From NCBI GenBank assembly GCA_963766165.1, contig CAVXZC010000012.1, forward strand, positions 594,607 to 658,606: a stretch of 64,000 bases of DNA. The letters are read 5' to 3'. Below, in pieces: positions 1 through 14,595 of the stretch. Position numbers and translations under genes: made by a program. The notes under the pieces were generated by a model. That model ran no database searches. It was not told the DNA's origin and was given only the letters and a program-made list of their open reading frames with translations. Each line of letters begins with the position of its first letter. Position 1 is the first letter of the stretch. This DNA is from an uncultured Solirubrobacteraceae bacterium. Its GTDB lineage: Bacteria; Actinomycetota; Thermoleophilia; Solirubrobacterales; Solirubrobacteraceae.

Positions 1-1084
1 AGAGCTGCGCGAAGCGCTCCAGCGACATGCCGCGCCGGTTGACCGCCTCGTCGCGCACGGCGGGCAGCATCGCCTGGATGATGTTGATCCCCAGCGGCGC
101 CTTGAAGATGTCGCCGGCCGCGGCCTGCTTCTCCTCGCGGGTGTAGGGCGAGTGGTCGGAGCCGAGCGAGTCGATCGTCCCGGCCAGGACGTGCTCCCAC
201 AGCCGCTCGACGTCCGCGCGCGCCCGGATGGCCGGAGCGCAGCGCGCCCAGGCCCCCAGCCGCACCAGGTCGTCGTGGTCCAGCAGCAGGTACTGCGGGC
301 ACGTCTCGCAGGTCACCCGGGCGCCGGCCGCCTTGGCCTTCCGCACGATCTCGGCGCCCTCGGGCGTGGAGACGTGGGCCACGTGCAGCCGCGTCCCGGT
401 GTGGGTGGCGAAGCGCACCACGCGCGCGATCGCCTCCGCCTCGACCAGCGGGGGACGCGACTCGGCGTGGGCCAGCGGATCGGTCCGGCCGGCCGCGGCC
501 ATCCGGGCCAGCCCCGCCTGCAGCAGCGAGTCGTTCTCCGCGTGCACGATCAGCAGCGCGTCGAGCTCCGCCAGGTGCTCGAGCGCCTCCAGCAGCGTCG
601 CGTCGTCCAACCGCGGATAGCCGGGGCTGGACGCGCACATGTAGGCCTTGAACGCCCGCACGCCCTGTTCCTGCAGCGCGGCCAGCTCGTCGCGGGTCTG
701 GCCCGCCGCCGCCGCGTAGAGCGCGAAGTCGCAGATCGACGCCCGCTCGGCCAGCCCGCGCTTGATGGCCAGCGACTCCGGGTCTCGCACGAGCGGGTCG
801 GCCTGCGGCATCTCCCCGACCGTGGTGATGCCGCCGGCCACGGCCGAGGCGGTGCCCGGCCCGAAGCCCTCGCGCTGGGCCTTCGACGGCTCGCGCAGGT
901 GCGTGTGGATGTCCACGCCGCCGGGGAGGACGACCCTCCCCGTGGCGTCGAGGCGCTCGCCCGCGACCTCGCCGGCGTCTCCGACGAGCGCGGCGATGCG
1001 CCCATCCTCGATCACGATGTCGACGTCGCGCACGCCGTCCGCGAGGACGACGCGCGCGCCGGAGACGACGGCGAGCCCGGGCAT
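1..1084 (-). CDS. Cyclic amidohydrolase (allantoinase/dihydroorotase/hydantoinase family), 5' part in window; gene continues past window start
   Basis: Reverse-strand translation from ATG at 1082-1084: MPGLAVVSGARVVLADG...GGVDIHTHLREP...AFKAYM...VHAEND...SDHSPY (metal-binding HxH, carbamylated-Lys and His/Asp motifs of cyclic amidohydrolases). Not in ORF track because it runs off the window. Start lies 5 nt downstream of the binding-protein stop codon. Confidence 0.8.
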   Translation of the reverse strand, partial: MPGLAVVSGARVVLADGVRDVDIVIEDGRIAALVGDAGEVAGERLDATGRVVLPGGVDIHTHLREPSKAQREGFGPGTASAVAGGITTVGEMPQADPLVRDPESLAIKRGLAERASICDFALYAAAAGQTRDELAALQEQGVRAFKAYMCASSPGYPRLDDATLLEALEHLAELDALLIVHAENDSLLQAGLARMAAAGRTDPLAHAESRPPLVEAEAIARVVRFATHTGTRLHVAHVSTPEGAEIVRKAKAAGARVTCETCPQYLLLDHDDLVRLGAWARCAPAIRARADVERLWEHVLAGTIDSLGSDHSPYTREEKQAAAGDIFKAPLGINIIQAMLPAVRDEAVNRRGMSLERFAQL

Positions 1085-1089
1085 GGCCG

Positions 1090-2730
1090 CTAGCCCTTCC
1101 ACGCCACCCAGAGCGGGTAGTGCGCCGTGCTCTGGATGAAGAAGTCGTGGACGTCGTTGGCGAACGCGAACCGGTTGGTCGGGTTGATCAGCCAGAGGAT
1201 CGGCAGCTTGTCCATGATGATCCCCTGCCACTTGCCGAGCGCGGCGCCGCGCTCGGTGGTGTCCAGCATGCCCTGGGTCGAGTAGTAGAGCTTGTCCGCG
1301 CTCTTGTCGACCCAGCCGGTGTAGCCCGACTTCGCCCCGCCGGTGGAGACACAGCAGAACAACATGTTCGAGTTCGGCTCCAGGTTGTCGCTGGTGCCGT
1401 AGGTGTAGGACATCTGGTACTGCTGCTTCTGGAGCTTCTCGAACGCCGTCGTCTGGTCGACCGGCTCGATCTTGAGCGTGATGCCGATCTGCTTGAGCTC
1501 GCTCTGCATGATCGTGCCGATGGCCGCGGCCACCTGGTCGCCGGCCGGCGGGCTGAACGACACCGAGAAGCCCTTCGGGTACTTCGACTTGGCCATCAGC
1601 GACTTCGCCTTGGCCAGGTCGTACGCGTAGCCGTACTGGTCGGTGTGGAAGTAGACGCCCGGGTCGATCGGCGAGGTCGCCGCCTTGGCGTTGCCGAAGA
1701 ACACGCCCTTGACGATCGCCTGGCGATCGATCGCGTAGTTCATCGCCTTCACCACGTTCGGGTCGCGGAACTGCGGCACGTCGGTCATGTTCAGCGCGCT
1801 GGCGATCACGCCGAGCTGCGGCGTGGCCGCGGCGACGAGCTTCGGATCGGCGTCGATCGGACCGATCTGGTTGAAGGGCACGTCCATCACGGCGTCGAGC
1901 TGGCCGCCGCGCAGCTCGGTCATGCGCGTGTTGTCGTTCGGGATGTAGTCGAGCCGGACCTCTGACAGATACGGGTACTTGTGGCCGCAGGCGTCCTTGC
2001 CCCAGTAGTAGGGGTTGGCCTTGAGCAGCACGTGGTCGCCGGGCTTGAACTCCGCCACGGAGAACGCCCCGGAGCCCATCGGGTGCGTCTTCGGGTCCAT
2101 GCCGCCCTCGATGGCCTTCTTGGACATGATCGACGCGCCCCACAGCGTGAGGTCGTTCAGGAACGGCGCGTATGGCTTGCCGAGCGTGACCTTGATCGTG
2201 TGCGGGTCGACGACCTCCGTGCTCTTGATCGCCGACAGCGTCCAGTTGTTGACCGACTTGGGCGCCTCGACCCGGTCGAACGAGAACTTGACGTCGTCGG
2301 CCGTGACCGGCGTGCCGTCGGAGAACTTCGCGTCCGGCCGCAGGTGGAAGGTGTAGACGCGGCCGCCGTCGGAGACATCCCACGACTTCGCGAGGCCGGC
2401 GACGACCTTCTTCGCGTCGGGCGCCAGCTCGACCAGCTGGTCGTAGATGTTCATGTCGGCCCACAGCGAGCCGTTGTCCTGCGTGTTGTGGGCGTCGAAG
2501 CTGATGACGTCCTGGTCGACGCCGAAGTTGAGCGTGCCGCCGCGCTTGACGTGGCCGCAGTCGCCACCGCCGGCGGCGGCGGCCTTGGCGAGGGTCTTGC
2601 CCTGGCCGGAGCTGCCGGAGCCGCTGGAACTCGATCCGCCGCCGCAGCCGGCGACCAGCGCGGTGACGCTGGCGATCGCGGCCCAGCCGTACACGCGCGC
2701 GGGCCCGCGCGCCCTGCGAAGGAACACCAT
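1090..2730 (-). CDS. ABC transporter substrate-binding lipoprotein, family 5 (peptide/nickel/opine type)
   Basis: Track ORF 1090..2784. Likely start is the internal ATG (MVFLRR...) at 2730, preceded by GAGGAGG. Signal peptide with lipobox LVAGC; long SBP_bac_5-like body. Track GTG at 2784 would overlap the predicted -10 box. Confidence 0.85.
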   Translation of the reverse strand: MVFLRRARGPARVYGWAAIASVTALVAGCGGGSSSSGSGSSGQGKTLAKAAAAGGGDCGHVKRGGTLNFGVDQDVISFDAHNTQDNGSLWADMNIYDQLVELAPDAKKVVAGLAKSWDVSDGGRVYTFHLRPDAKFSDGTPVTADDVKFSFDRVEAPKSVNNWTLSAIKSTEVVDPHTIKVTLGKPYAPFLNDLTLWGASIMSKKAIEGGMDPKTHPMGSGAFSVAEFKPGDHVLLKANPYYWGKDACGHKYPYLSEVRLDYIPNDNTRMTELRGGQLDAVMDVPFNQIGPIDADPKLVAAATPQLGVIASALNMTDVPQFRDPNVVKAMNYAIDRQAIVKGVFFGNAKAATSPIDPGVYFHTDQYGYAYDLAKAKSLMAKSKYPKGFSVSFSPPAGDQVAAAIGTIMQSELKQIGITLKIEPVDQTTAFEKLQKQQYQMSYTYGTSDNLEPNSNMLFCCVSTGGAKSGYTGWVDKSADKLYYSTQGMLDTTERGAALGKWQGIIMDKLPILWLINPTNRFAFANDVHDFFIQSTAHYPLWVAWKG

Positions 2731-2778
2731 CGTTTTGAGCCCTCCTCGACTCCCGCGGCAGCCGGGTAGCCACCGCAT

Positions 2779-2811
2779 CTTCACTCTAGATGCAGAATTT
2801 CACTCTGTCAA
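2779..2811 (-). promoter_or_regulatory. Predicted sigma70-like promoter with embedded operator: TTGACA-17nt-TAGAGT on minus strand, two AGAGTGAA direct repeats spaced 20 bp; copy 1 of a 33-bp element repeated at 14631-14663
   Basis: Read directly: plus strand cttcactctagatgcagaatttcactctgtcaa; 27/33 identical to the 14631-14663 copy. Lies between the ATPase stop (2808) and the binding-protein start. Confidence 0.5.
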
Positions 2812-3782
2812 TCGTCATAGAGATGGCAGGCCACGGCCCGCCCGCTTGCCATCACGTGCCTGGCGGGGTACTCCCGGCGGCAGCGATCCATGGCGAACGG
2901 ACAGCGCGGATGGAAGTGGCAACCCGACGGCGGGTCCAGCGGGCTCGGCAGGTCGCCCTCGACACCGCGCTCGGAGCGGGGCTCCTCGGCGTCGATCAAA
3001 GGGACGGCGGCGAGCAGCGCCTGCGTGTAGGGGTGCAGCGGCTCCTCGAACAGCTCCGCCGTCGCCGCCTCCTCGACCACCCGCCCCAGGTACATGACCA
3101 CGATCCGCGTGCTCATGTGGCGGACGACGCCGAGGTCGTGCGAGATGAACAGGTAGGTCAGGTCGAGGTCGTCCTGCAGCGTGACCAACAGGTTGAGGAT
3201 CTGCGCCCGGATCGACACGTCGAGCGCCGACACGGCCTCGTCGGCCACGATGAACCGCGGGCCGACGGCCAGCGCGCGGGCGATCACGATGCGCTGGCGC
3301 TGCCCGCCGCTGAACTCGTGCGGGCGCCGGTCGCCCATCGCCGGCTCCAGGCCGACCCGCTCGAGCAGCTCGTCCACCCGCCCGCGGCGCTCGCCGGGCG
3401 GGCACAGCTCGTGCACGCGCAGCACCTCGTCGAGCGCGCCGCGCACGGTCTGGCGCGGGTTCAAGGACGAGTAGGGGTCCTGGAAGATGATCTGGATCTC
3501 GCGCCGCAGCCGGCGCACGGCGCGCTTGTCGGCCATGTCGACGGCCTGGCCGGCGAACCGCACCTCACCGCTGGTCGGCTTCTCCAGCGCGAGCAGGACC
3601 CGGCCCAGCGTGCTCTTGCCGCAGCCGCTCTCGCCGACCAGCCCGACCGTCGTCCCGCTCGGCATGGCGAACGACACGTCGTCGACCGCGCGCAGCACGT
3701 CGGCGCCGCGGCCGAACATCCCGCGCCCGACCCGGTAGTGCTTGCTCAGGCCACGGGCCTCGACGAGCGGCGTGTCAGACAA
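2808..3782 (-). CDS. ABC transporter ATP-binding protein (DppF/OppF-like)
   Basis: Walker [10 protein letters not shown], signature LSGGQRQR, oligopeptide-ABC C-terminal domain. Start chosen as TTG ([13 protein letters not shown]) overlapping the upstream gene stop; alternative ATG at 3824. Confidence 0.85.
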
Positions 3783-4803
3783 TCGGGGCCTCCACGGCCG
3801 CGTGGCGCCGGCAGCGCGTCGCATGCGCCGGCGCGACGTCGAGCAGCTCCGTTTCCCACTCCCGGCAGGCCTCCTCGGCGAGCGGGCAGCGCGGCTCGAA
3901 CACACACGTGCGGGGCGCCTCCCGGAGGCTGGGCGGCGAGCCGCCGATCGGCTTCAGGAACCGGCTCGGGTTCGCCGCCCGGGGCAGCGACTCGACCAGC
4001 CCCACGGTGTACGGGTGCCTGGGTGCGCGCAGCAGCTCGCGCACCGGCGCCGTCTCGACGAGCTGTCCGCCGTACATCACGGCCACGCGGTCGCACGTCT
4101 GGACGATCACCCCGAGGTCGTGGCTGACCAGCACGATGCTCATCCCGAGCTCGGCCCGCAGTCGCCTCAGCAGGCGCAGGATCTGGTCCTGGATCGTCAC
4201 GTCGAGCGCGGTGGTCGGCTCGTCGGCCAGCAGCAGCTTGGAGCCGCAGGCCAGGGCGATGGCGATCAGCACGCGCTGACGCATGCCGCCGCTGAACTCG
4301 TGCGGGTACTGGCGCAGCCGCCGCTCGGGCGAGCCGATGCCGACCTGCTGCAGCAGCTCGACCGCCTTCGCCCGGCGCTGCCCGCGGTCGAGGTCGGTGT
4401 GCCGGCGCAGCGTCTCCGTCAGCTGCTCGCCGACCTTCAGGACCGGGTTCAGGTAGCTCATCGGGTCCTGGAAGATCATCGAGATGCCGGCGCCGCGGAC
4501 CGCCCGCAGCTCGCGCTCGCGCATCGTCACCAGGTCGTCGCCGTGGAAGCGCGCCTCGCCCGTCACGTGCGCCGAGCCGGGCAGCAGCCCGATCATGGCC
4601 CGCAGCGTCGCGCTCTTGCCGCAGCCGCTCTCTCCCACCAGGCCGAAGATCTCGCCGGAGCGGACGTCGAAGCTGACGCCGTTGACCGCGTGCACCGTGC
4701 GGGTGCCGTCGTAGCGGACCGCCAGGTCGCGCACCGCCAGCACCGTCTCCGTCGGCCGCGCCGCCGTATCGGCGGCCAGGACCCGGTCGTCCGCCGCGCC
4801 CAT
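3775..4803 (-). CDS. ABC transporter ATP-binding protein (DppD/OppD-like)
   Basis: C-terminal 343 aa of track ORF 3775..5619 ([10 protein letters not shown]...[10 protein letters not shown]...FSGGMRQRV...). ATG at 4801-4803 overlaps the permease stop (ATGA). The 614-aa track ORF is a frame-extension artefact. Confidence 0.85.
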
Positions 4804-5687
4804 CACCGCTCCCCCCGCAGCATGTCGGCCAGGTTGTCGCCGATCAGGCTCAGCCCGACCCCGAACAGCGCGATCATCACGCCCGGTACGGCGGCGAGCC
4901 ACCAGTTGGTGGCGATGTACTCCTGGGCGTCGGCGATCATCTTGCCCCACTCCGCCGTGGGGTCGGCCACGCCGAGCCCCAGGAAGCCGAGCGCCGCGCC
5001 GATGCTCACGTTGTTGACCGCGTCGACCATGGCGAACACGAGCGCCGGCGCGGCCGCGTTGGGCAGCACGTGGCGGAACATGATCCGCCAGTTGCCGTAG
5101 CCGAGCGCGCGGGCCGCGGTCGTGTAGTCGCGCTGCTTGAGCACGAGCACCTCGCCGCGCACGATGCGCGCGTAGGCCACCCAGGTGACCGCCCACATGG
5201 CGATCAGCATGTTCAGCAGCCCGCCGCCGAGGATCGCGATGATCGCCAGCACGAGCACGATCAGCGGGAAGGCGAAGACGATGTCGACGAGCCGCATCAT
5301 CACCGAGTCGACGCGGCGGCCCGAGTAGCCCGCCACAAGGCCGTAGAGCGAGCCGAACGTGCAGGTCACCGTGGTCGCGGCGAACGCGATCAGCAGGTCG
5401 ACGCGGCCGGCGTAGAGGACGCGGCTGAGCAGGTCGCGCCCGTACTGGTCGGTGCCGAGCAGGTGCCCGGGCGAGAATGGCGGCTCCAGCGCGTGCAGCA
5501 GGTCCTGCTGGTTGGGGTCGTAGGGCGCGAGCAGCGGCGCGAACACGGCGGAGAGCGCGATCAGGACGACGAGCACGATCCCCACGATCAGCGGCACGCG
5601 CCCGCGCAGCCGCACCCACGACAGCGGCGTGCGCGGCGTGGCGACGGTGACGGGCGCGGCGACGGGCTCGTTGAGGAGGTCGCTCAT
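4803..5687 (-). CDS. ABC transporter permease (DppC-like)
   Basis: 294 aa, multi-TM, BPD-transporter-like hydrophobic segments. Confidence 0.9.
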   Translation of the reverse strand: MSDLLNEPVAAPVTVATPRTPLSWVRLRGRVPLIVGIVLVVLIALSAVFAPLLAPYDPNQQDLLHALEPPFSPGHLLGTDQYGRDLLSRVLYAGRVDLLIAFAATTVTCTFGSLYGLVAGYSGRRVDSVMMRLVDIVFAFPLIVLVLAIIAILGGGLLNMLIAMWAVTWVAYARIVRGEVLVLKQRDYTTAARALGYGNWRIMFRHVLPNAAAPALVFAMVDAVNNVSIGAALGFLGLGVADPTAEWGKMIADAQEYIATNWWLAAVPGVMIALFGVGLSLIGDNLADMLRGER

Positions 5688-5688
5688 C

Positions 5689-6630
5689 TCAGTCGAACGA
5701 GACGCGCGGGTCCATGACGGCGTAGGCGACGTCGGTCATCAGGTTGATCGCCACGACACAGAAGCCGAAGACGAGGATGATCCCCTGCACGACCGAGAGG
5801 TCGCGGGTGTTGATCGAGGAGGCCAGCAGCTGGCCGAGGCCCGGCAGCGCGAACACGTTCTCGATGATCACGGTGCTGCCGATCAGGTAGGCGAGGTTGA
5901 CGCCGATCACCGTCACGCCCGCGATCAGGGCGTTCCGCAGCACGTGCCGGTTGAGCACGCGCAGCGTCCCGAGGCCCTTGGCCTTCGCGGTGTCCAGGTA
6001 GTCCGCCTGCAGCACCCCGAGGATGCTGTTGCGCAGCGTGCGGGTGAGGATCGCCCCGAAGCCGAGCGCGATCGTCAGCGCCGGGAGGAACAGGTGGTAG
6101 AGGTGGCCGGTGACGCCTGTCCCGTAACCCGAGACCGGGAAGATCGGGAACTTGAGGCCGAACAGCAGGATGAGGATCAGCCCCACCCAGAACGGCGGCA
6201 TGGCGAAGATGACCAGGAACGAGACGCGCGTGGTCTGGTCGGCCACGCCGTTGCGCCGCAGCGCGCTCAGCGTGGCCAGCGGGACGCTGATGACGATCGC
6301 CAGCACGGTCGAGTAGACGGCCAGCCACAGCGTCACCGGCAGCCGCTCGCTGATCAGCGAGGTGACCGACTGGTGGTAGTAGATCGACTGCCCGAGGTTC
6401 AGCCGGAACAGGTTCTCCATGAACAGGCGGTACTGCTCGGCGACCGACTTGTCGAGCCCGAGGTTGTGGCGCAGCACCGCGGCACGCGCCGGCGTCCAAT
6501 GGGCGCCGAGCATGACCGAGGTGGGGTCGCCCGGGATCAGCCGCAGGATGAAGAACGCGATGATCGTCACGCCGACCACCACGGGCACGGCCTGGAGCAG
6601 GCGCCCGCGCAGGAAGCGGAAGCGGCCCAT
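5689..6630 (-). CDS. ABC transporter permease (DppB-like)
   Basis: 313 aa, multi-TM, typical DppB/OppB N-terminus MGRFRFLRGRLLQAVPVVVGVTIIAF. Confidence 0.9.
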   Translation of the reverse strand: MGRFRFLRGRLLQAVPVVVGVTIIAFFILRLIPGDPTSVMLGAHWTPARAAVLRHNLGLDKSVAEQYRLFMENLFRLNLGQSIYYHQSVTSLISERLPVTLWLAVYSTVLAIVISVPLATLSALRRNGVADQTTRVSFLVIFAMPPFWVGLILILLFGLKFPIFPVSGYGTGVTGHLYHLFLPALTIALGFGAILTRTLRNSILGVLQADYLDTAKAKGLGTLRVLNRHVLRNALIAGVTVIGVNLAYLIGSTVIIENVFALPGLGQLLASSINTRDLSVVQGIILVFGFCVVAINLMTDVAYAVMDPRVSFD

Positions 6631-7369: not shown

Positions 7370-8263
7370 TTACGCCGCCGCCTCTTGCCCCGCGCGCAGC
7401 CCCAGCAGGTCGGCGAGGTTGCGCTCGGACCGCAGCTCGGGCTCGATCCGGCCGGCCGCCGCGGTCATCAGCGGCGTGACGCCGGGACCGTGGCCGCCGC
7501 GCGGGCTGTCGCCGTGGGCCACCACGCCGATCGTCAGCGCGCCGGCCAGGTAGCCCGGGCCCCAGCGCGTGTCGAAGTCGCGCAGCGCGACGATGTCGCC
7601 GAGGCGCAGGGCGTCGAGACCGGCCGCGCGCAACGCCGCCTCGTCCTCGGTCTGGATCTGGATCGCGCCGCTCTCGGCCTGCAGCCCCGCGCCCGCGCCC
7701 GCGAGCAGCGGCGGCACCTCGGCGACCACCGGGACCGTCAGCACGCCCGGCTCGCCGGCCCGCACCTCGAGCGCGTCCAGCAGCGCCGGCGAGCAGCTCT
7801 TGAGCTGCACGTCGGGGTAGTCGCTGAGCGCGAGGCTGCGGCCCAGCGCGCGGATCAGGATCTTGTCCTGGATCGCCAGGCGCTCGAGCACGTCGGGGGC
7901 GAAGTGGACGATCACGTGGTCGGCGAAGCGGCCGCTCTTGCCGATCACGGTCCCGCGCGCGCCCTGGGCGCTCCCACTGGCCACGATCGCCTCGTTGCCG
8001 ACGCAGGCGATGACATTCAGCGCGTGGTTGGGCCCGTCGGCCGGGCTCTTCACGCTCACGCCCGGCTGGACCATGTCCGCCGTCCAGCCGAACGCGCTGT
8101 CGCCGACGCGGACGTTGTAGACGATCCCGCCGGGCGGGACGAGCAGGCGCGGGCGCCCGTCGGCGCCGATCACGTACGGGCTCGCCGGCAGCGTCGGCAG
8201 CTCGGGCGAGGAGACCTGGCCCTGGACGGCGACGCCGACGATCTGGCTGCGGTTGTCGAACAC
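7370..8263 (-). CDS. Conserved hypothetical protein, paralog A of a tandem pair (size and pattern reminiscent of DUF4438-type proteins; unverified)
   Basis: 297 aa, GTG start with GAGGGGGA ribosome-binding site. Shares GDSAFGW, CVGNEA and HGDS..GHGPGV blocks with the next gene. Confidence 0.7.
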   Translation of the reverse strand: MFDNRSQIVGVAVQGQVSSPELPTLPASPYVIGADGRPRLLVPPGGIVYNVRVGDSAFGWTADMVQPGVSVKSPADGPNHALNVIACVGNEAIVASGSAQGARGTVIGKSGRFADHVIVHFAPDVLERLAIQDKILIRALGRSLALSDYPDVQLKSCSPALLDALEVRAGEPGVLTVPVVAEVPPLLAGAGAGLQAESGAIQIQTEDEAALRAAGLDALRLGDIVALRDFDTRWGPGYLAGALTIGVVAHGDSPRGGHGPGVTPLMTAAAGRIEPELRSERNLADLLGLRAGQEAAA

Positions 8264-8279: not shown

Positions 8280-9200
8280 TCAGCCGGTCACGGCGTAGGA
8301 GCTGACATGGTCGCCCGGCCGGCGGGCCTCGATCTCTTCCCGCGTGCGCAGGCCCAGCCGGACGGCGATGTTGGCCTCCGGGTCGCGCACCGTGGTGATG
8401 ACATGCTCCTCGCGGCAGGTGAGCAGATCCAGGACCCCCGGTCCATGTCCGGTCCAGGCCGAGTCGCCGTGGATGATGAGCCCGATGGTCATCGCGCCCT
8501 GGCGGTAGCCGCGGCCCCACATGTGGTTCGTGTCCGGGACGGCCACGATGTCGCCCAGGCGCAGCCGGTCCAGGCCGAGCTCGGCGATGTGCGCCCGGTC
8601 GCCGGTCATGAAGTCCTGGTCGACATAGTCGGCCATCAGCTCGGCGCCGGAGCCCATCAGATACGCGGGGATCTCGTTCACCACCGGCACGAGCAGCGCG
8701 CCGTCGGGCGCGGTGTCGAGCCGCAGCGCCTCCAAGAGCCGCGGGCTGACCTTGTGGGTGAGCACCCCCGGGTGGTCGAGCAGCTCGAGCCCCGTGCCGA
8801 CGGCCCGGATCTGGATCGTGTCGCCGATGGCCAGCAGCTCGATGTCCTCGGGCGGGAAGTCGACGAGCAGGTGCGCGTGCTCGCCGGTCAGCGTCCCGCG
8901 CGCGCCGGCGCAGGCGCCCGAGGTGACCACGGCCTCGTTGCCCATGCAGGCCAGGTAGTGGAGCGCGTGCTCGGGGCCGTCGAGTGGGTTGCGCACCGAG
9001 ACGCCGGGCTCCAGATGGTCGACCTCCCACCCGAAGGCGGGATCGCCGCAGCGGTGGGTGAAGCAGATCCCGGCCATCCCGATGCCCACCGTGGCCCTGC
9101 CCTCGGACGTGGCCTGGTACGGCAACCGGGTCAGCCCCGGCGGCCACACCTCCCCGGAGACGGACACCTCGACCAGCGAGTCGGCGTTCGTGCGCAGCAT
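8280..9200 (-). CDS. Conserved hypothetical protein, paralog B of the tandem pair
   Basis: Real start MLRTNADSLVEV at 9198-9200 (ATGA overlap with upstream stop). Shares GDPAFGW, CMGNEA and HGDSAWTGHGPGV blocks with paralog A. Track ORF 8280..9767 is over-extended. Confidence 0.7.
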   Translation of the reverse strand: MLRTNADSLVEVSVSGEVWPPGLTRLPYQATSEGRATVGIGMAGICFTHRCGDPAFGWEVDHLEPGVSVRNPLDGPEHALHYLACMGNEAVVTSGACAGARGTLTGEHAHLLVDFPPEDIELLAIGDTIQIRAVGTGLELLDHPGVLTHKVSPRLLEALRLDTAPDGALLVPVVNEIPAYLMGSGAELMADYVDQDFMTGDRAHIAELGLDRLRLGDIVAVPDTNHMWGRGYRQGAMTIGLIIHGDSAWTGHGPGVLDLLTCREEHVITTVRDPEANIAVRLGLRTREEIEARRPGDHVSSYAVTG

Positions 9201-10186
9201 CAGCCCTCCTTCAAGACGTGCAGCGGCGCCTCGCCGCGGGCGAAGCGGACGACGTTGGCCAGCACGTCGCTCATCTGGTTCACCCGCGCGCCGCCGGTCC
9301 CGCCGCCGATGTGCGGCGTGACGATGACGTTGGCCAGTGCGAGCAGGGGATTGTCGTACGGAACAGGCTCCTCCACGAACACGTCGAGCCCGGCGCCGCG
9401 CAGGCGACCGGACGAGAGCGCGTCCACCAGCGCCGGCTCGTCGACGAGCGGACCGCGCGCGATGTTGACGAGGTACGCCTCGGGGCGCATCAGCGCGAGC
9501 TCGCGGGCGCCGATGATCTTGTCGCTCTCCGGCGAGTGCGGCAGCGACAGCAGGACGAAGTCCGACGCGGCGAGCAGGTCGTCGAGCGGCCTGTACGCGA
9601 CGCCAAGCCGGCGCTCGATCGCCTCCGGCAGCCGCGTCCGCTTCGTGTAGAGCACGTCCATCCCGAGCGCCCGCGCCCGCACGGAGACCTCCGTGCCGAT
9701 CTCGCCGTAGCCGACGATGCCCAGCGTGTGGCCGTGCACCTCGAGCAGGTGCGGCAGCTTCATCCACTGGAAGGCGAACGTGCGCTGGCTGGTCGGCGCG
9801 GGCGTCAGGCCCAGGTCGCGGTAGCCGCCCTGCACCGTGGACGCGTGGGCCACGATCAGCTGCTTGGACAGCGCGAGGATGAGCGTCGTGGCCAGTTCGG
9901 CCACGGCGATGCAGCCGCGCAGCGGCATCGTCGCCACCGTCACGCCGGCCGCGCCTGCGGCGCCCAGGTCGATGCCGTCCTCGCGCGCGCCGTACTTCTG
10001 CAGGAAGCGCGCGCCCGGGGCGGTCGCCAGCACCGCCGCGTCGACCGCGGCCGACTTGGTCACCAGCGCGTCGGCGCCCGCGCCGTCCAGGTTGACGACC
10101 CGGAACCCCTCGGGGACGAGCTCGTTGCCCAGCTCGAGGTCGGCGTCGGGCTGCTCGTCCACCCAGGCGATGACGAACTCGCTCAT
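9200..10186 (-). CDS. D-isomer-specific 2-hydroxyacid dehydrogenase family (NAD-binding)
   Basis: 328 aa; GIVGYGEIG dinucleotide-binding motif and conserved R/E/H triad context. Confidence 0.9.
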   Translation of the reverse strand: MSEFVIAWVDEQPDADLELGNELVPEGFRVVNLDGAGADALVTKSAAVDAAVLATAPGARFLQKYGAREDGIDLGAAGAAGVTVATMPLRGCIAVAELATTLILALSKQLIVAHASTVQGGYRDLGLTPAPTSQRTFAFQWMKLPHLLEVHGHTLGIVGYGEIGTEVSVRARALGMDVLYTKRTRLPEAIERRLGVAYRPLDDLLAASDFVLLSLPHSPESDKIIGARELALMRPEAYLVNIARGPLVDEPALVDALSSGRLRGAGLDVFVEEPVPYDNPLLALANVIVTPHIGGGTGGARVNQMSDVLANVVRFARGEAPLHVLKEG

Positions 10187-11358
10187 GCCGCGAGCACCGC
10201 CTCGATGCGCTCCATGGCCACGATCAGCTCGGGCTCGGGGACGAGCCAGGCCAGCCGCATGTAGTCCGCCCAGGCCTCGCCGAAGCCGGTGCCCGGGAAG
10301 ATCAGCACGTGCGCCTCCTCCAGCAGCTTGAGCGACAGCTCGGGCGCCGGGATGCCGGTCGAGGCGGCGTTGAGGAACACGTAGAAGCCGCCGCGCGGCT
10401 CCCCGTAGCTGATGCCGAGCCGGTCGAGCGAGTCGAGGACGATCTTGCGCCGGCGCGTGTAGATCTGCCGGTACTCCTCGACGACGTCCATCGGGCCGGT
10501 GAGCGCGGCCACGCCGGCCGCCTGCGAGACCACCGGCGCGCAGGTGCTGACGATCGCCTTCCGGCGCCGCGCCTCGGCCATCACCGGGTGCGGGCCGCCC
10601 AGGTAGCCGAGCCGCCAGCCCGTCATGCAGAACGTCTTCGAGAAGCCGTTCACGGTGACGGTGCGCTCGGACATGCCGGGGAGCGATCCGATGCTCAGGT
10701 GCTCGTGCGGGTCATAGACGAGCTTCTCGTAGATCTCGTCGGAGATGACGTAGAGGTCGTGGCGCTGCGCCACGCCGGCCAGCGCGCGCAGGTTCTCGGG
10801 CGTGACCGTGCCCGCCGTGGGGTTGTTGGGCGAGATCAGCAGCAGCGCCTTCGTGCGCGGCGTGATCCGCTTCTCCACCTCGTCCGGATCGAGGTCGAAC
10901 CCGTCGGCCTCGCGCGTGGGCACCGAGACCATCGTCGCCCCGGCCATCTTGATCGCGATGTCATAGGACGTGTAGCGCGGGTCGGGCACGAGGATCTCGT
11001 CCCCCGGCTCCAGCAGCGCCTGCACGGCCAGGAAGAGGCCCTCCTGGCCGCCGGTGGTGACCACCACGCCGTCCGGACCGCCGACGTCCACGCCGTTCTC
11101 GCGCCGCAGCTTGTCCGCTACCGCGGCCCGCAGCTCCGGCGTGCCGGCGGGGTCGCTGACCCGGTCGGCGTCGCCCCGGTCGATCGCCGCCTTGGCCGCC
11201 TCCACGATGTGGGCCGGCGTCGGCAGGTCCGGGTCCCCGCGGCCGAGCGCGATCACGTCGTCGACGCGCGCGGCCAGGTCCATCAGGCCATAGCGGATAC
11301 GGGTGCCGCCGTCCGCGAGCCGATCGCCCCCGGGGCGCGTGGTGGTCGGCTCGGTCAT
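10183..11358 (-). CDS. PLP-dependent aminotransferase, class I/II
   Basis: Start MTEPTTT at 11356-11358 (ATGA overlap). SKTFCMTGWRLGY lysine motif region. 829-aa track ORF is an extension artefact. Confidence 0.9.
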   Translation of the reverse strand: MTEPTTTRPGGDRLADGGTRIRYGLMDLAARVDDVIALGRGDPDLPTPAHIVEAAKAAIDRGDADRVSDPAGTPELRAAVADKLRRENGVDVGGPDGVVVTTGGQEGLFLAVQALLEPGDEILVPDPRYTSYDIAIKMAGATMVSVPTREADGFDLDPDEVEKRITPRTKALLLISPNNPTAGTVTPENLRALAGVAQRHDLYVISDEIYEKLVYDPHEHLSIGSLPGMSERTVTVNGFSKTFCMTGWRLGYLGGPHPVMAEARRRKAIVSTCAPVVSQAAGVAALTGPMDVVEEYRQIYTRRRKIVLDSLDRLGISYGEPRGGFYVFLNAASTGIPAPELSLKLLEEAHVLIFPGTGFGEAWADYMRLAWLVPEPELIVAMERIEAVLAA

Positions 11359-12410
11359 GCGGTCTCCTCGTGATCGTGGGCGGTGAGCGCGGCGGCCAGC
11401 CGCCGGCCGGCGAGCCGCAGCCGCTCGGGCGACTCGGTGAGCGACAGCCGCAGCCAGCCGGACAGCCCGACGGTGTCGCCGGGCGCCGCGCGCACGTCCG
11501 CCGCTGCGGCCGCGTCGTCGCCGCCCTGGACGAGCACGTGCCAGCCCGCCGCCGGCGCGACGCACCGGGCGCCGCCCGCGTCGAGCGCGGCCACGAGCGC
11601 GGCGCGCCGCGCGCGCACCTCGGCCTGCGCCTCGCCCACGCGGTCCTGCGGGCCGCGCACGGCGGCCAGCGCGGCGTACTGGGAGACCGCGGGGCTGCAG
11701 ATGCTCAACGCCTGCTTGAGCGCGATCATCGGGCCGAGCAGCGCCTGCGGCCCGGCCAGGTAGGCCACCCGCCAGGCCTCCAGGCCCCAGATCGCCGAGA
11801 AGCCGTTGATGGTGACGGTGCGCTCGGCCATCCCGGGCAGCGCGGCGATGCTGCGATGGACGGCGCCGTCGTGCAGCAGCGGCTCGAGGCTCTCCACCGC
11901 GACCACGGTCAGGTCGTGCTCGCCGGCCACGCTCGCGAGTGCGGCCAGCTCCGCGTCGCCGGGCGCGATCAGGCCCGGCGCTCGCAGCACGATCACCTTG
12001 GTCCGGTCGGTCACCGCCTGGGCCACGGCGTCGGCGTCGAGGGCGAGCCCGCGCTCGGGGTCGGACGCCAGCGCGCGCGGCGTGGCCCGGGCCAGGCTCA
12101 CGATGTCGGCGTCTCCGGCGCGGGCGGGCGCGGCCAGGATCGCCTCGTCGCCGGGCTCGAGCAGCACGTGCAGCGCGACCCACAGCGCCTCCTGCTCGCC
12201 GCAGGTGATGAGCACCTCGCGCTCGGGGTGCACCGCGATCCCGTTCTCGGCGGCCAGCTTCTCCGCCACGGCGCGGCGCAGGGGATTGATCCCCGGGCGC
12301 GTCGTGTAGTGCGTCTCGCCCGCGTCGAGCGCGTCCTTGGCCCCTTGGCGGACGTGCGCGGGCGTCGGGAGGCCGAGGTGGTCGGCGGACAGGTCGATCA
12401 CATCGGTCAT
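11355..12410 (-). CDS. PLP-dependent aminotransferase, class I/II (divergent paralog)
   Basis: Start MTDVIDLSADHLGLPTPAH at 12408-12410 (ATGA overlap). Same fold pattern as the previous gene. The canonical Lys region is altered, so function is uncertain. Confidence 0.75.
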   Translation of the reverse strand: MTDVIDLSADHLGLPTPAHVRQGAKDALDAGETHYTTRPGINPLRRAVAEKLAAENGIAVHPEREVLITCGEQEALWVALHVLLEPGDEAILAAPARAGDADIVSLARATPRALASDPERGLALDADAVAQAVTDRTKVIVLRAPGLIAPGDAELAALASVAGEHDLTVVAVESLEPLLHDGAVHRSIAALPGMAERTVTINGFSAIWGLEAWRVAYLAGPQALLGPMIALKQALSICSPAVSQYAALAAVRGPQDRVGEAQAEVRARRAALVAALDAGGARCVAPAAGWHVLVQGGDDAAAAADVRAAPGDTVGLSGWLRLSLTESPERLRLAGRRLAAALTAHDHEETA

Positions 12411-13534
12411 CGGGTCGCCTCCACGGCGCGTCGCAGCTCGAGCGCGACCCGGCGGACGTCGTCGGCGGCGAGCTCTGGGTAGATGGGCAGGCACAGCAGC
12501 TCTTCCGCGAGCCGGTCGGTGTTCGGGAACGACCCGGCCGGGCGGTCGCGGTAGACGGGCTGCCGGTGCAGGGGCGGGACGTAGAGGAGGGAGGTCTCGA
12601 CTCCGCGGCCGGCGAGGTCGGCTCGCACCGCGTCGCGCCGGGGGACGCGGACGACGTAGTTGCGGTAGGCATGCGTCACGCCGGCCGGGACGCTCGGCGT
12701 GATGACCGGCGAGCCGGCCAGCAGCTCGTCGTAGAGCGCGGCCACCGCCCGGCGGCGGCGCGCCGCGTCCGGCAGGTGGCGGAGCTTCACGCGCAGGATC
12801 GCGGCCTGCAGCAGGTCGAGGTGGCTGTGGTAGCCCTCCGCCTCCAGGCGCTGGCGCCCGTCCGGGCCGGCCATCGCCTCGCGGAACGGCTCGCCGTACC
12901 CGGCCAGCAGCCGGGCGCGATGGGCCAGGTCCGCGTCGTCGGTGGTGATCAGGCCGCCGTCGCCGTAGGCGCCGAGCACCTTGGCCGGCGCGAAGCTGAA
13001 GGAGGCGATGCGGCCGAGCGAGCCGGCCGGGCGGCCCCCCACCGTGGCGCCGAAGGCCAGCGCCGCGTCCTCCACGAGCGCGACGCCGCGTGGCTCGGCC
13101 AGCGCGCGCAGCTCGCCCACCGGCGCGGGGAGGCCATACAGGTGGACGGCCACGATCGCCTTGGTGCGCGGCGTGATCGCCGCGGCCACCCGCTCCGGGT
13201 CGAGGTTGTGGGTGGCGAGATCGACGTCGGCCCACACGAAGGTCGCGCCGGTGTGGCTGATCGCCGCGCAGGTGGAGATGTCGGTGTTCGGCGGCGCGAT
13301 CACCTCGTCGCCCGGCCCGACGCCGAGCGCGCGCAGGGCGAGGAACAGCGCGGCGAGCCCGCTGCCCACCGCGACGGCGTGGGCGGTCCCGCACGCCGCG
13401 GCCAGCTCGTCCTCGAGGCGCCACAGGTCCTCGCCCCGCTCGTACTCGCCACCGGCGAGGATCGCCGCGATGGCCGGGTCGAGCTCGGCGCGCAGCGCGG
13501 CGTAGCCGGCGCCGAGGTCGCTCGTGGGGATCAA
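12407..13534 (-). CDS. DegT/DnrJ/EryC1/StrS-family PLP aminotransferase
   Basis: ELIPTSDLGAGYAAL N-terminus. TTG start with GGAGG 4 nt upstream and TTGA overlap with the Ldh_2 gene stop. About 375 aa. Confidence 0.85.
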   Translation of the reverse strand: MIPTSDLGAGYAALRAELDPAIAAILAGGEYERGEDLWRLEDELAAACGTAHAVAVGSGLAALFLALRALGVGPGDEVIAPPNTDISTCAAISHTGATFVWADVDLATHNLDPERVAAAITPRTKAIVAVHLYGLPAPVGELRALAEPRGVALVEDAALAFGATVGGRPAGSLGRIASFSFAPAKVLGAYGDGGLITTDDADLAHRARLLAGYGEPFREAMAGPDGRQRLEAEGYHSHLDLLQAAILRVKLRHLPDAARRRRAVAALYDELLAGSPVITPSVPAGVTHAYRNYVVRVPRRDAVRADLAGRGVETSLLYVPPLHRQPVYRDRPAGSFPNTDRLAEELLCLPIYPELAADDVRRVALELRRAVEATR

Positions 13535-14595
13535 TTCGCCTCCAGCGGCGCGACGTCCAGCGCCTCGGCTGCGGCTGCCAGCTCGTCGAGGCGCTCGGCG
13601 TCGATCGGTACGCCCTCGCGTCGCCGCTGCTGCGCGCGCTCCCACTCGATCTGGCCGGGCAGCTTGATCTCCTGCGCGCCCGGCGCGAGCGGGGCGGAGA
13701 CGATCTGCTCGATCAGCGCGTCCATCCGCGCCCGGAAGTCGGCGACCGGCGTGAAGCGGCCGATGTCGATGGCGATCAGGAGGTGGCCGACGTCCTGGTG
13801 GTCGGGCCCGAAGCAGTCCAGCCCGAACGCCGATCCCGTCAGCACGCCCGTCAGCGCGTCGACGACCACCGCGAGCGCGTAGCCCTTGGGCCCGCCGAGC
13901 GGGAACAGCGCGCCGAGCATCGCCGCGGACGGGTCAGTGGTCCGCTCGCCGCCCTCCGTATAGGCCCAGTCGTCGGGAATCGGCAGCCCGAGCCGCTCGT
14001 GCCAGCGGATCATGCCCTTGCCCGACGTGCTGTTGGCCATGTCGAGCAGCACGGGCCATTCGCGGCCGCTGGGCACGGCGACGGCCCAGGGGTTCGTCCC
14101 CACCACCGCCGTCGCGGCGCCCCAGGGCGCGATCTCCGGGCCGGCGTTGGTGAACGACAGGCCGATGCACCCGCGCTCGAGCGCGCGCTCGGCGTAGTAC
14201 GCGGCGACGCCGAAGTGCGTGCTGTCGCGCACGCCGACGGCGCCGATGCCGGACTCGGCCGCCAGGTCCAGCGCGAGCTCCATCGCCCGCGTCGCGGCCA
14301 CGTGGCCGGAGGCGCGGTGCGCGTCGAGGAGCGCCGTGGCCGGCGCCCGGCTCACCGTCTCCAGCCGCGCCGCCGGGTCGATCACCCCGGCTTGGATGCG
14401 GGCGTGGTAGCTGCCGATCCGCGAGACGCCCTGGCCCTGGCCGGGCAGCGAGCGCAGCGAGCCGGCCAGCAGCACGTCGGCGAACGTCTCGGCGTCGGGC
14501 GCCCGGAAGCCCATGCGCGCGGCGCAGCCGCGGCAGAAGCGCTCGAGCTCCGGGTACGGGACGAGGACCGTCGGTACGGTGGGCGCAGAGGACAT
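13531..14595 (-). CDS. Ldh_2 family (malate/L-sulfolactate/ureidoglycolate/piperideine-2-carboxylate) dehydrogenase or reductase
   Basis: 354 aa; GTNPWA, STSGKGM and HxG motifs typical of PF02615. First gene of the operon. Confidence 0.85.
   Translation of the reverse strand: MSSAPTVPTVLVPYPELERFCRGCAARMGFRAPDAETFADVLLAGSLRSLPGQGQGVSRIGSYHARIQAGVIDPAARLETVSRAPATALLDAHRASGHVAATRAMELALDLAAESGIGAVGVRDSTHFGVAAYYAERALERGCIGLSFTNAGPEIAPWGAATAVVGTNPWAVAVPSGREWPVLLDMANSTSGKGMIRWHERLGLPIPDDWAYTEGGERTTDPSAAMLGALFPLGGPKGYALAVVVDALTGVLTGSAFGLDCFGPDHQDVGHLLIAIDIGRFTPVADFRARMDALIEQIVSAPLAPGAQEIKLPGQIEWERAQQRRREGVPIDAERLDELAAAAEALDVAPLEAN

Follow-up and report, generated by a model that had tools for sequence, protein, structure and literature searches.

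The window analysed here, a 64,000-nucleotide stretch of DNA from an uncultured Solirubrobacteraceae bacterium, begins with a series of co-directional genes best read as a real, co-regulated set for uptake and breakdown of a nitrogen-rich amide compound. The interpretation we prefer, held with about even confidence, is a substrate-inducible catabolic regulon in which an 'upper' module particular to the lineage is joined to a 'lower' core shared across phyla. This enzyme core, including two proteins of the uncharacterised family DUF4438, occurs in three or more bacterial phyla, and no described pathway fits it; that the pathway is undescribed is a well-supported conclusion rather than a demonstration. 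The initial annotation, which had proposed a single catabolic operon with an unusual enzyme mix, largely holds as an observation, while its interpretation is partly supported.

Gene organisation and regulation

GC3 (third-codon-position GC) analysis and reading of the open reading frames filled positions 1-14595 with 14 genes (A to N), all co-directional on the minus strand; the range had been credited with 15, and the fifteenth co-directional gene, that of the regulator R, lies just upstream of it. Stop and start bases are shared at seven junctions, where at least six had been claimed: a TTGA overlap at 13534, ATGA overlaps at 12410, 11358 and 10186, 1-nt TGATG overlaps at 9200 and 4803 (both first taken for ATGA) and an 8-nt gene overlap at 3782-3775. 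Five short gaps of 16, 7, 0, 1 and 5 nt agree with the 0-17 nt given before; the 77 nt between the ATPase gene L and the binding-protein gene M, which contain a promoter-like site, do not. Since gene N is cut by the window edge, the cluster is incomplete within the window. In the close relatives L089 and L090, N is followed by a gene for a VOC (glyoxalase-fold) protein and then by one for a TIGR01879 hydantoinase/carbamoylase-family amidase; both genes are known from relatives only, as the window ends before them. Both in the window and in L089, an M19 dipeptidase gene flanks the cluster.

The regulator R (14671-15255, minus strand, 194 aa) combines an XRE-type HTH with a cupin domain (Pfam HTH_3 and Cupin_2), and the NCBIfam model that it matches best is PuuR, although its 75.8 bits do not reach the cut-off of 211. 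An orthologue occupies the identical position in L001-L004, L089 and L090, and R is likely an effector-sensing repressor of the cluster; in other phyla the corresponding regulator is of the GntR(FCD) or IclR type. Beside it, a small, divergently transcribed gene (15324-15707, plus strand, 127 aa), for which the Pfam search returned no family, is conserved with unchanged position (87% identity to the L089/L090 versions, 56-58% to those of Solirubrobacteraceae loci); its product is possibly an accessory DNA-binding protein.

Two sigma-70-like promoter/operator boxes, both on the minus strand, have an identical 14-nt core within a common 32-nt box. Box 1 (14632-14663), upstream of gene A, reads TTGACA-17-TAGATT with embedded TGAAA repeats; the near-consensus box 2 (2780-2811), TTGACA-17-TAGAGT, lies between L and M, the stop codon of L being the TGA within TTGACA. 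No other promoter-like site occurs in 16 kb, where zero are expected by chance. Both are kept in L089/L090, relatives at 88.6% nucleotide identity, in which box 1 is conserved whereas the intergenic sequence around it diverges. From box 2, a putative internal promoter, M, N and the genes beyond them would be transcribed, and this directly observed duplication before M implies that two or more units under common control, not one seamless operon, make up the cluster. Of the single tight operon described before, the co-directional functional unit thus stands, in the form of a regulon. We infer a pairing of R with the boxes: R would repress both near-identical promoters via the common box, and binding of the substrate or an intermediate would release them.

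The internal promoter also separates two modules, which recombine independently between phyla, and one could argue that no single pathway exists at all, an importer/hydantoinase module merely adjoining an unrelated DUF4438/aminotransferase module, or that the cluster is biosynthetic. We consider this highly improbable: the common box at both promoters ties the units to one control, order and content are kept from the window to other Solirubrobacteraceae at 53-72% protein identity, importer and amide hydrolases accompany the core in every version, and the exporter, ligase and synthetase genes of a biosynthetic cluster are absent.

Importer and amide hydrolases

Profile-HMM annotation with Pfam confirmed all the family assignments made before, among them a complete peptide/opine-type importer, whose five parts are of the SBP_bac_5, OppC and oligo_HPY type. 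The permeases are I (5689-6630, minus strand, 313 aa; BPD_transp_1 and BPD_transp_1_N) and J (4803-5687, minus strand, 294 aa; BPD_transp_1 and OppC_N), the ATPases K (3775-4803, minus strand, 342 aa) and L (2808-3782, minus strand, 324 aa), both with ABC_tran and oligo_HPY. L has a TTG start and overlaps K by 8 nt, with length and overlap unchanged in L089. The family-5 solute-binding lipoprotein M (1090-2730, minus strand, 546 aa, lipobox LVAGC; SBP_bac_5, 321.6 bits) reaches none of the binding-protein equivalogs (best GsiB at 172 bits, cut-off 594, and NikA at 167 bits, cut-off 393). Its top PDB match is AapF, the ligand of which is an ethanolamine-derived amide.

The cyclic amidohydrolase proposed for N (2-1084, minus strand) is an Amidohydro_1 protein of the allantoinase/hydantoinase/dihydroorotase type by Pfam; its gene is truncated, with residues 1-361 of about 454 inside the window. 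All metal-ligand motifs (HxH, K, H, H, SDH) are seen in the translation. Full-length orthologues of N score 391 against TIGR03178 (AllB, allantoinase), above the cut-off of 357.85, and 394 against the newer allantoinase model NF004839, below its cut-off of 631; against the D-hydantoinase/dihydropyrimidinase model N scores 330 (cut-off 393). As for the M20 amidase, a partial orthologue of 294 residues from the Solirubrobacteraceae locus L081 gives 240 bits against TIGR01879 (cut-off 204).

Enzymes of the core

Of the three aminotransferases first listed, the families were confirmed, while one proved to lack the PLP lysine. B (12407-13534, minus strand, 375 aa), a DegT/DnrJ/EryC1-type PLP aminotransferase (Pfam, 327 bits) whose TTG start shares bases with the stop of A, has its lysine motif SFAPAK intact. 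C (11355-12410, minus strand, 351 aa) is a class I aminotransferase-fold protein with a weak Pfam match (99.7 bits) that carries FSA, not FSK; in the four lineages compared, the PLP Asn and Asp motifs are gone as well. This loss of active-site residues is observed directly: the lysine is absent from C in every lineage and retained in D. Judged by these residues, C is a conserved pseudoenzyme, which leaves just two "aminotransferases" out of three capable of catalysis. The class I aminotransferase D (10183-11358, minus strand, 391 aa; Pfam, 227.8 bits) keeps its NGFSKTFCMTGWR motif intact, which marks it as catalytically competent; its nearest PDB entries are Pyrococcus aromatic/aspartate aminotransferases. 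Gene C is always immediately upstream of D, the proteins are 40% identical, and C is probably a partner of D.

The PDB entries nearest B, a scyllo-inositol transaminase and DesV, represent scyllo-inosose and sugar aminotransferases and could point to catabolism of an amide of an amino sugar, aminocyclitol or amino alcohol, in which the amidase would free a carbohydrate-like skeleton and B and the dehydrogenases would interconvert amine, ketone and alcohol positions. The AapF match of M and the GFO_IDH_MocA and NAD-epimerase genes adjoining the importer in Chloroflexota fit such a route. It is nevertheless very unlikely, as D is a typical alpha-amino-acid aminotransferase, kinase, aldolase and glycosidase genes are absent inside the window cluster, and B is found only in Actinomycetota and Dormibacterota versions (4 of 83 loci). 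Missing from most versions of the cluster, B is accessory.

The two paralogs noted as being of unknown function both belong to DUF4438 and are 46% identical. F (8280-9200, minus strand, 306 aa; DUF4438 and DUF4438_C) retains all the family-invariant polar residues in comparison with 40 single-copy members; G (7370-8263, minus strand, 297 aa; Pfam) has lost five of them (H, E, H, D, D), a loss conserved in 40 orthologues. F is likely the predicted catalytic subunit and G its likely non-catalytic partner, and the His/Glu/His/Asp/Asp constellation of F is suggestive of a metal site. The only structural relative is TM1086, and no paper mentioning DUF4438 was found.

Two further dehydrogenases retain their catalytic motifs. 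E (9200-10186, minus strand, 328 aa), a D-isomer-specific 2-hydroxyacid dehydrogenase (2-Hacid_dh and 2-Hacid_dh_C) with GYGEIG and TPHIGG, matches glyoxylate reductase best in NCBIfam (198 bits, cut-off 455). H (6631-7362, minus strand, 243 aa) is a classical short-chain dehydrogenase/reductase (adh_short) with TGAGAGLG, NNAG and YCPSK. The NAD(P)-dependent oxidoreductase A (13531-14595, minus strand, 354 aa, motif PGQGQGV; Ldh_2, 360 bits) has a Gln in place of His44 and Ala-Gly in place of Ser140-Asp141 in 68 of 68 orthologues. The former residue was termed "invariant" in the Ldh_2 family and the latter pair is specific to AllD (PMC3527362); by these positions, A is an atypical Ldh_2 subfamily.

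It is here that the suggested resemblance to allantoin degradation breaks down. In a variant ureide pathway N would be the allantoinase, the downstream M20 enzyme the allantoate amidohydrolase, D the ureidoglycine aminotransferase, A the ureidoglycolate dehydrogenase and E the glyoxylate/hydroxypyruvate reductase, with DUF4438 standing in for the missing ureidoglycine or ureidoglycolate enzyme. The AllB score of the N orthologues, the Ldh_2 membership of AllD, the top match of E and the M20 amidase of relatives, closest among subfamilies to allantoate amidohydrolases, agree with it. We regard it as unlikely: A is without the AllD residues and His44, N falls short of the newer allantoinase model, scores come nowhere near the AllC equivalog, and genes for ureidoglycine aminohydrolase, ureidoglycolate lyase and oxamate transcarbamylase are absent. 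Furthermore, Chloroflexota and Dormibacterota pair the same core with non-ureide hydrolases.

Distribution across phyla

The cluster recurs in related genomes: Thermoleophilia and Solirubrobacteraceae MAGs have the gene order of the window, and about 70 genomes of Chloroflexota, as well as Dormibacterota, contain the core. The core, directly observed to be syntenic in Actinomycetota, Dormibacterota and Chloroflexota, consists of the DUF4438 pair, VOC (50% identical between Actinomycetota and Chloroflexota), Ldh_2 and the dead and live aminotransferases, often with the 2-hydroxyacid dehydrogenase and SDR. Over 83 loci (80 species genomes and three re-fetched copies, from at least four phyla), G is found in 83, F in 82, A in 69, D in 65, VOC in 63, C in 62, importer parts in 50-54, E in 43 and H in 35. 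The core is constant, whereas importer and hydrolase modules vary with the lineage. The accessory hydrolases all cleave amide bonds: the carbamoylase is swapped for ArgE/DapE-type M20, M14 and M24 peptidases in Chloroflexota, for AstE/AspA and a Xaa-Pro-dipeptidase-like amidohydrolase in Dormibacterota, or for FmdA/AmdA hydrolases in these phyla. This rules out a cyclic ureide as the substrate of all versions.

These peptidases, the peptide-type importer, the flanking M19 gene and a DHDPS-family gene added in Solirubrobacteraceae versions would suit import of peptides or N-acyl amino acids with an unusual residue (a D-amino acid, diaminopimelate or an imino acid from cell-wall debris). Hydrolases would release the residue, and the core would invert or deaminate it through the oxo-acid by means of L- and D-specific 2-hydroxy/oxo-acid dehydrogenases and a VOC epimerase. 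This is possible but doubtful: in the window lineage the regulon encodes no peptidase, its hydrolases being an allantoinase-like enzyme and a carbamoylase-type amidase, and racemase or D-amino-acid enzyme families are absent. With just 23-27% identity between the binding proteins of different phyla, M and those of Chloroflexota included, it is probable that the imported compounds are not the same.

Proposed pathway

For the catabolic regulon that we prefer, both substrate class and reaction order are what we infer from gene content, itself directly observed. The lipoprotein-anchored Opp/Dpp-type importer (M, I-L) would bring in a nitrogen-rich, amide-type compound, most likely a 5-substituted hydantoin, dihydropyrimidine or similar cyclic ureide, alternatively an N-blocked amino acid. 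Ring opening by N would yield an N-carbamoyl amino acid, from which the carbamoylase-type M20 amidase, encoded beyond the window edge past VOC, would release the free amino acid, CO2 and NH3. D, probably as a heterodimer with the catalytically dead C, would turn the amino acid into a 2-oxo acid; B, where present, would act on a second, non-alpha amino or keto position, and A, E and H would process oxo/hydroxy groups. The distinctive step or steps would fall to the VOC isomerase/epimerase-like protein and a hetero-oligomer of intact F and degenerate G. It may be that the core itself acts on a free amino acid. Importer, amide hydrolases and repressor fit the catabolism of an imported nitrogen-rich amide-type compound proposed at the outset. 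Among the points against our reading, Opp-type importers are not usual for hydantoin or allantoin uptake, and the proteins of the window all stay below the equivalog cut-offs of NCBIfam, so that no enzyme reaches one that names a substrate.

Comparison with known systems

Like hyu modules (hydantoinase, N-carbamoyl-amino-acid amidohydrolase, racemase and transporter), the cluster has N followed in relatives by the TIGR01879 amidase, a dedicated importer and a repressor. It differs in that N stays below the D-hydantoinase/dihydropyrimidinase cut-off, a VOC-fold gene lies between the two hydrolase genes instead of an Asp/Glu-type hydantoin racemase, the importer is of the Opp/Dpp type and not an NCS1 permease, the usual hyu transporter, and eight additional conserved enzymes are present. 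With the enterobacterial/Bacillus allantoin regulon (AllB, AllC, AllD and PucG among others) it shares an allantoinase-like amidohydrolase, an Ldh_2 enzyme, an aminotransferase, an M20 amidase of the allantoate-amidohydrolase/carbamoylase family and a glyoxylate-reductase-like dehydrogenase; the signature residues of AllD, His44, the AllC and newer AllB equivalogs and the cupin and lyase enzymes of that pathway are missing here, and in other phyla the core is paired with non-ureide hydrolases. The importer has the complete Opp/Dpp/Nik (PepT-type) set of SBP_bac_5 lipoprotein, two permeases (one OppC_N) and two oligo_HPY-tailed ATPases, but M falls below every binding-protein equivalog and its gene follows the ATPase genes with its own promoter copy. 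R scores below the PuuR cut-off, yet has the two-domain architecture of PuuR-type XRE-HTH and cupin repressors and a gene directly upstream of the regulated genes. Finally, DUF4438 has as its structural-genomics representative TM1086 of Thermotoga maritima (PDB 3DCL, 3N99). This protein and its clostridial relatives are encoded by single-copy genes in non-metabolic contexts, whereas the DUF4438 proteins of the cluster form an obligate tandem pair, with one member degenerate, in a catabolic setting.

Gene organisation and control of the cluster

At about 73% G+C, the window yields raw ORF lists full of spurious frames; genes were called by analysis of GC at third codon positions (GC3) together with inspection of start codons. 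This places 14 co-directional minus-strand genes, here A to N, within 1-14595, with a fifteenth, R (14671-15255, minus strand; Pfam HTH_3 and Cupin_2), directly upstream. Each family assignment of the initial annotation was confirmed by Pfam, and no protein of the window reached a curated cut-off in the NCBIfam profile search; tRNA and Rfam scans of the 64 kb revealed neither a tRNA gene nor an Rfam family at gathering score.

Neighbouring genes overlap by 4 nt at four junctions (TTGA at A/B; ATGA at B/C, C/D and D/E), by 1 nt at two (E/F and J/K) and by 8 nt at one (K/L), and gaps of 16, 7, 0, 1 and 5 nt are found at F/G, G/H, H/I, I/J and M/N, respectively. The L/M gap measures 77 nt and had been missed when all other gaps were put at 0-17 nt. 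Only two sigma-70-like sites were found in 16 kb, both on the minus strand: TTGACA-17-TAGATT between R and A (14663-14635) and TTGACA-17-TAGAGT between L and M (2811-2783), with the TGA stop codon of L lying within the TTGACA. Transcription would be expected to begin near 14628 and 2776, respectively. Both sites are part of one 32-nt box, TTGACAGAGTGAAAWTCTGCRYYTAGAKTGAA, which occurs exactly twice in 64 kb (none expected, 100 shuffles) and holds TGAA(A) repeats, 20 nt apart, on either side of the -10 element. Two soil-metagenome contigs from close relatives (L089 and L090), collinear with positions 15695-1 at 88.6% nucleotide identity, keep both copies although the intergenic DNA around them has diverged, and more distant relatives carry other but analogous palindromic TGAA-N-TTCA elements within the promoter.

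Two promoter sites mean that the cluster is transcribed in two units or more (A-L; M-N with the downstream genes), presumably under one control. Of the single tight operon originally proposed, the co-directional coupling thus stands, but the seamless unit does not, given the internal promoter at L/M; binding-protein genes commonly have such an additional promoter of their own. The regulator R has the HTH_3-cupin architecture of PuuR, but scores 75.8 bits against an equivalog cut-off of 211. We infer that R pairs with the two boxes as a repressor with its operators; it would hold both promoters repressed and release them on binding of an effector to its cupin domain.

Divergent from R lies a gene for a 127-aa protein without a Pfam family (15324-15707, plus strand), which could serve the cluster as a second regulator; L089/L090 (87%) and Solirubrobacteraceae loci (56-58%) have it in the same place, and in the loci L001/L002 it was not detected. 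A GH15 glucodextranase-like gene (Glucodextran_N and Glyco_hydro_15; 15704-18016, minus strand) follows. The 2.2-kb stretch containing it (15696-17878) is missing from L089, which is collinear on both sides (88.6% nucleotide identity), and seems to have been inserted recently, separating the small divergent gene from a Peptidase_M19 (membrane dipeptidase) gene (17880-18830, minus strand). The latter and a PolX-type DNA polymerase gene (19611-20345, minus strand) flank the cluster in an order matching L089/L090. About 12 kb from the cluster, genes of a xanthine-dehydrogenase/CO-dehydrogenase-family molybdoenzyme are found (FAD_binding_5, then Ald_Xan_dh_C with MoCoBD_1/2; 26912-30866, minus strand), and an aldehyde dehydrogenase gene with an adjacent thiamine-diphosphate enzyme gene (36920-40026, minus strand) is possibly another small catabolic unit.

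Dehydrogenases and aminotransferases

Gene A (13531-14595) encodes an Ldh_2 protein (Pfam, 360 bits). In this family His44 and His116 are described as invariant, and Arg48, Ser140 and Asp141 are conserved in ureidoglycolate dehydrogenase, AllD, Ser140 and Asp141 being specific to it (PMC3527362). In the A sequences, comprising that of the window and 67 cluster-linked orthologues, Gln occupies the His44 position and Ala-Gly that of Ser140-Asp141 in 68 of 68; His116 and Tyr52 are likewise kept in 68/68, and Arg48 in 61/68. Against the NCBIfam AllD models A scores 179-188 bits (cut-offs 356-496), and an identity as AllD is rejected on the signature residues. A DpkA-type imine reductase is unlikely as well, being the weakest PDB match (91 bits), with the proposed catalytic His absent. 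Judged by its residues, A is a distinct Ldh_2 subfamily.

The two class I aminotransferases, C (11355-12410) and D (10183-11358), are 40% identical, always adjoining and translationally coupled. Against Aminotran_1_2, D scores 228 bits and C just 100 bits. D has the Schiff-base lysine as well as the Asn and Asp/Tyr PLP contacts, and so everything expected of an active class I/II enzyme; where it reads NGFSKTFC, C reads NGFSAIWG, and the NPT and SDEIY motifs are gone from C. The position of the Schiff-base lysine is Ala, Gly or a gap in C of four lineages, and these losses, together with those of the Asn and Asp/Tyr PLP motifs, extend to the orthologues of Solirubrobacteraceae, Dormibacterota and Chloroflexota, the last being shortened to about 230 residues. 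C is thus a predicted pseudo-aminotransferase. Given that aminotransferases of class I form obligate dimers whose active sites are shared, the simplest reading is a C:D heterodimer, which would have one working site. It is doubtful that D is a canonical aspartate aminotransferase: the lysine of GGKQ, which in the Thermus enzyme binds the distal carboxylate, is replaced by Gln (GGQE). Among known structures, D matches best that of the Pyrococcus aromatic aminotransferase.

Catalytic motifs are kept in B (12407-13534), in E (2-Hacid_dh; 9200-10186) and in H (adh_short; 6631-7362). B matches the DegT profile at 327 bits with the active-site lysine motif SFAPAK, and reaches none of the named DegT equivalogs (ArnB 208 vs 631, PseC 205 vs 423.5). 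An amino-sugar or amino-alcohol route, as an alternative account of the cluster, draws its support mainly from this protein, which is accessory.

The DUF4438 pair

Genes F (8280-9200) and G (7370-8263) encode paralogs, 46% identical, each with both domains of DUF4438 (PF14505 and PF20999, 130-160 bits per domain); NCBIfam gave no match for either. Family-invariant polar residues were defined against 40 single-copy DUF4438 members. F keeps all of them (H62, E64, C85, H108, H110, D127, D194, D196, D217, H244, H252), and its His/Glu/His/Asp/Asp pattern suggests a candidate metal site. In G, five are replaced (M64, Q66, S110, A200, Q202), and over G and 40 orthologues the replacements are His to Met/Leu/Cys, Glu to Gln/His, His to Ser, Asp to Cys/Ser/Ala and Asp to Gln/His/Ser; by sequence G thus belongs to the family, in degenerate form. 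A 374-aa metagenome protein (P0101) was considered as an F-G fusion and rejected as a frameshifted chimera: an F-type C-terminal part and a G-type N-terminal part are joined via a low-complexity, frameshift-like stretch, and the protein probably arose as an error of assembly or gene calling.

DUF4438 comprises thousands of proteins, among them one of solved structure, TM1086. 'DUF4438' appears in no paper found by the literature search; 'TM1086' returned only C. elegans strain names and one crystallisation-methods paper, 'PF14505' a single match in which the accession is used for the unrelated family CAP_assoc_N, and searches for Ldh_2/aminotransferase, hydantoinase/carbamoylase and pseudo-aminotransferase combinations nothing relevant. 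No DUF4438 match was found in the plasmid collection, and the neighbourhoods of single-copy genes in Thermotoga, Caloranaerobacter and Zhenhengia are non-metabolic and give no metabolic clue. The single-copy genes of Thermotoga sp. KOL6 (L085, 8001-9525) and Zhenhengia (L087, 7044-8855) directly adjoin intramembrane-protease genes (Rhomboid; Rce1-like CPBP), a repeated association which may be a hint that the ancestral family had another role, not a catabolic one. With the present cluster DUF4438 gains its first concrete genomic context, paired and beside Ldh_2, VOC and aminotransferase partners.

Importer and amide hydrolysis

The importer is complete, with two BPD_transp_1 permeases (I, 5689-6630; J, 4803-5687), two ABC_tran and oligo_HPY ATPases (K, 3775-4803; L, 2808-3782) and an SBP_bac_5 binding protein with the lipoprotein signal LVAGC (M, 1090-2730); all five are above the Pfam cut-offs and by these parts the importer is of the PepT type (Opp/Dpp/Nik). 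N, truncated in the window (window edge to 1084), matches Amidohydro_1 (49 bits, cut-off 25) and shows the motifs DIHTH, FKAYM, VHAEN, HVAHV and GSDHS, which we take to be the metal ligands HxH, carbamylated Lys, His, His and Asp. Profile and motif set make it a cyclic amidohydrolase of the allantoinase/hydantoinase/dihydroorotase branch.

The cluster runs past the window edge: in L089/L090 a 454-aa N is followed by a gene of VOC/glyoxalase fold (151 aa) and an M20 gene. The latter, known from relatives and lying beyond the window edge, belongs to the hydantoinase/carbamoylase amidase family TIGR01879 (cut-off 204), with 240 bits for a 294-residue partial orthologue in the Solirubrobacteraceae locus L081 and 133 for a 152-residue fragment in L089.

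The textbook route that the cluster suggests most readily is a variant of the allantoin pathway, and TIGR03178, the older allantoinase model (cut-off 357.85), to which the window fragment of N scores 306.7, is passed by the full-length orthologues of L081 and L089 (391). The reading nevertheless fails. Against NF004839 (cut-off 631) the fragment has 312.3 and the full-length orthologues 394-397, leaving the newer AllB threshold unreached. The M20 partial orthologues score 84-146 bits against the AllC model TIGR03176 (cut-off 597.75), the AllD residues are absent from A, neither the window nor L089/L081 contains a gene for the cupin enzyme or a lyase of the allantoin pathway, and the same core stands beside non-ureide hydrolases elsewhere.

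Conservation across phyla

A scan of the genome collection with a DUF4438 alignment gave 326 loci, of which the best 80 were analysed; window proteins were placed on them by tblastn, and counts refer to 83 loci, i.e. 80 species genomes and three repeat copies. Orthologues scattered in relatives would have spoken against a functional unit; gene order is instead kept among these best 80 of 326 loci. MAGs of Thermoleophilia and Actinomycetes have the identical order R-A-B-C-D-E-F-G-H-I-J-K-L-M-N, then VOC and M20, and Solirubrobacteraceae that of the window minus B, plus a DHDPS-family gene. In Dormibacterota A-B-C-D-E-F-G-H is flanked by two amidohydrolases, AstE/AspA deacylases and an FmdA/AmdA amidase. 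About 70 Chloroflexota genomes among the best 80 of 326 loci have F-G-VOC-A-C-D, accompanied either by an ArgE/DapE-type M20 enzyme, an allantoinase-like amidohydrolase and M14 and M24 peptidases, or by an importer, an SDR and FmdA/AmdA. Over the 83 loci (best 80 of 326), G is present in 83, F in 82, A in 69, D in 65, VOC in 63, C in 62, importer parts in 50-54, E in 43 and H in 35. Between phyla, VOC is 50% and the N-like amidohydrolases are 35% identical, the M20 enzymes are unrelated subfamilies, the binding proteins of Actinomycetota and Chloroflexota are only 23-27% identical, and the regulators vary (XRE-cupin, GntR or IclR). From these comparisons a constant core emerges, joined to lineage-specific uptake and amide-hydrolysis modules. 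One carrier of the cluster that can be cultivated is the Aggregatilineales strain SYSU G02658.

A Chloroflexota-type version also occurs under a cyanobacterial label, in a MAG labelled Pleurocapsa minor (L066), and a shorter F-G-Ldh_2-M24 segment in a Trueperaceae MAG (Deinococcota, L076); both indicate horizontal transfer or mis-binning.

Chance adjacency or a biosynthetic function is contradicted by the cross-phylum synteny, the shared operator and the importer and hydrolase content. Salvage of peptides, D-amino acids or cell-wall peptides agrees with the accessory genes of Chloroflexota and Dormibacterota and with the flanking M19 dipeptidase, yet is at odds with the hydrolases inside the regulon of the window organism.

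Proposed pathway

That the genes form one co-regulated catabolic pathway, not yet described, we regard as highly probable. From the gene content and order, their conservation, the duplicated promoter and the lost active-site residues, all directly observed, we infer a step order, heteromers and a substrate class. The lipoprotein-anchored Opp-type importer would bring in a nitrogen-rich compound of amide type. N and the downstream carbamoylase-type amidase, a pair that makes up the classical two-step ureide route, would convert a cyclic ureide to an N-carbamoyl amino acid and then to the free amino acid, CO2 and NH3. D, with C as partner, would transaminate the freed amino acid, A, E and H would carry out oxo/hydroxy redox steps, VOC and an F/G complex at least one further conversion, and B might act as an accessory enzyme on a second amino or keto position. 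This specific scheme from ureide via amino acid to oxo acid has, in our view, an even chance of being correct. Among more particular substrates, diaminopimelate, D-glutamate, hydroxyproline, ectoine, cysteate/sulfolactate, diketopiperazines, streptothricin and aminoacetone were considered, none of which suits every cluster version.

A further reading, which we rate at slightly below an even chance, is an undescribed catabolic pathway shared by uncultivated Actinomycetota, Dormibacterota and Chloroflexota of soil and wastewater, in which a new DUF4438 hetero-oligomeric metalloenzyme of one catalytic and one degenerate subunit would perform the signature step, with a VOC-fold protein, the His44-less Ldh_2 and an aminotransferase with its dead paralog as partners. 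Two pseudoenzyme partnerships, the dead aminotransferase and the degenerate DUF4438, likely coexist in one pathway, both kept across phyla; to our knowledge, few such pairings are on record for bacterial catabolism. The cluster has real potential to define a new pathway and a first function for DUF4438. It likely serves nitrogen scavenging, and it is widespread in poorly known groups for which metagenomes are the main source (Dormibacterota, Anaerolineae, Thermoleophilia). Automatic pipelines would probably call parts of it 'allantoinase' or 'malate/lactate/ureidoglycolate dehydrogenase', labels that the residue-level tests make unsafe.

Comparison with known systems

The allantoin catabolic gene set (AllC, ureidoglycine aminohydrolase, ureidoglycolate lyase/dehydrogenase) is not that of the cluster. 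With the hyu module the cluster shares a cyclic amidohydrolase and an adjoining TIGR01879-family amidase, in the orthologous loci only; full-length N orthologues (329-330) do not reach the D-hydantoinase/dihydropyrimidinase equivalog TIGR02033 (cut-off 393.25), and as to a hydantoin racemase, no Asp/Glu-racemase-family gene occurs in any cluster version examined. As a whole, the cluster is of a familiar kind: catabolic genes under a repressor, served by an ABC importer and entered through a hydantoinase/carbamoylase-like module. Its core is unfamiliar, reaching no equivalog and appearing in no paper found by the search, and combines an orphan fold present as an active/degenerate pair with a conserved dead aminotransferase and an Ldh_2 subfamily that dispenses with a supposedly invariant histidine.
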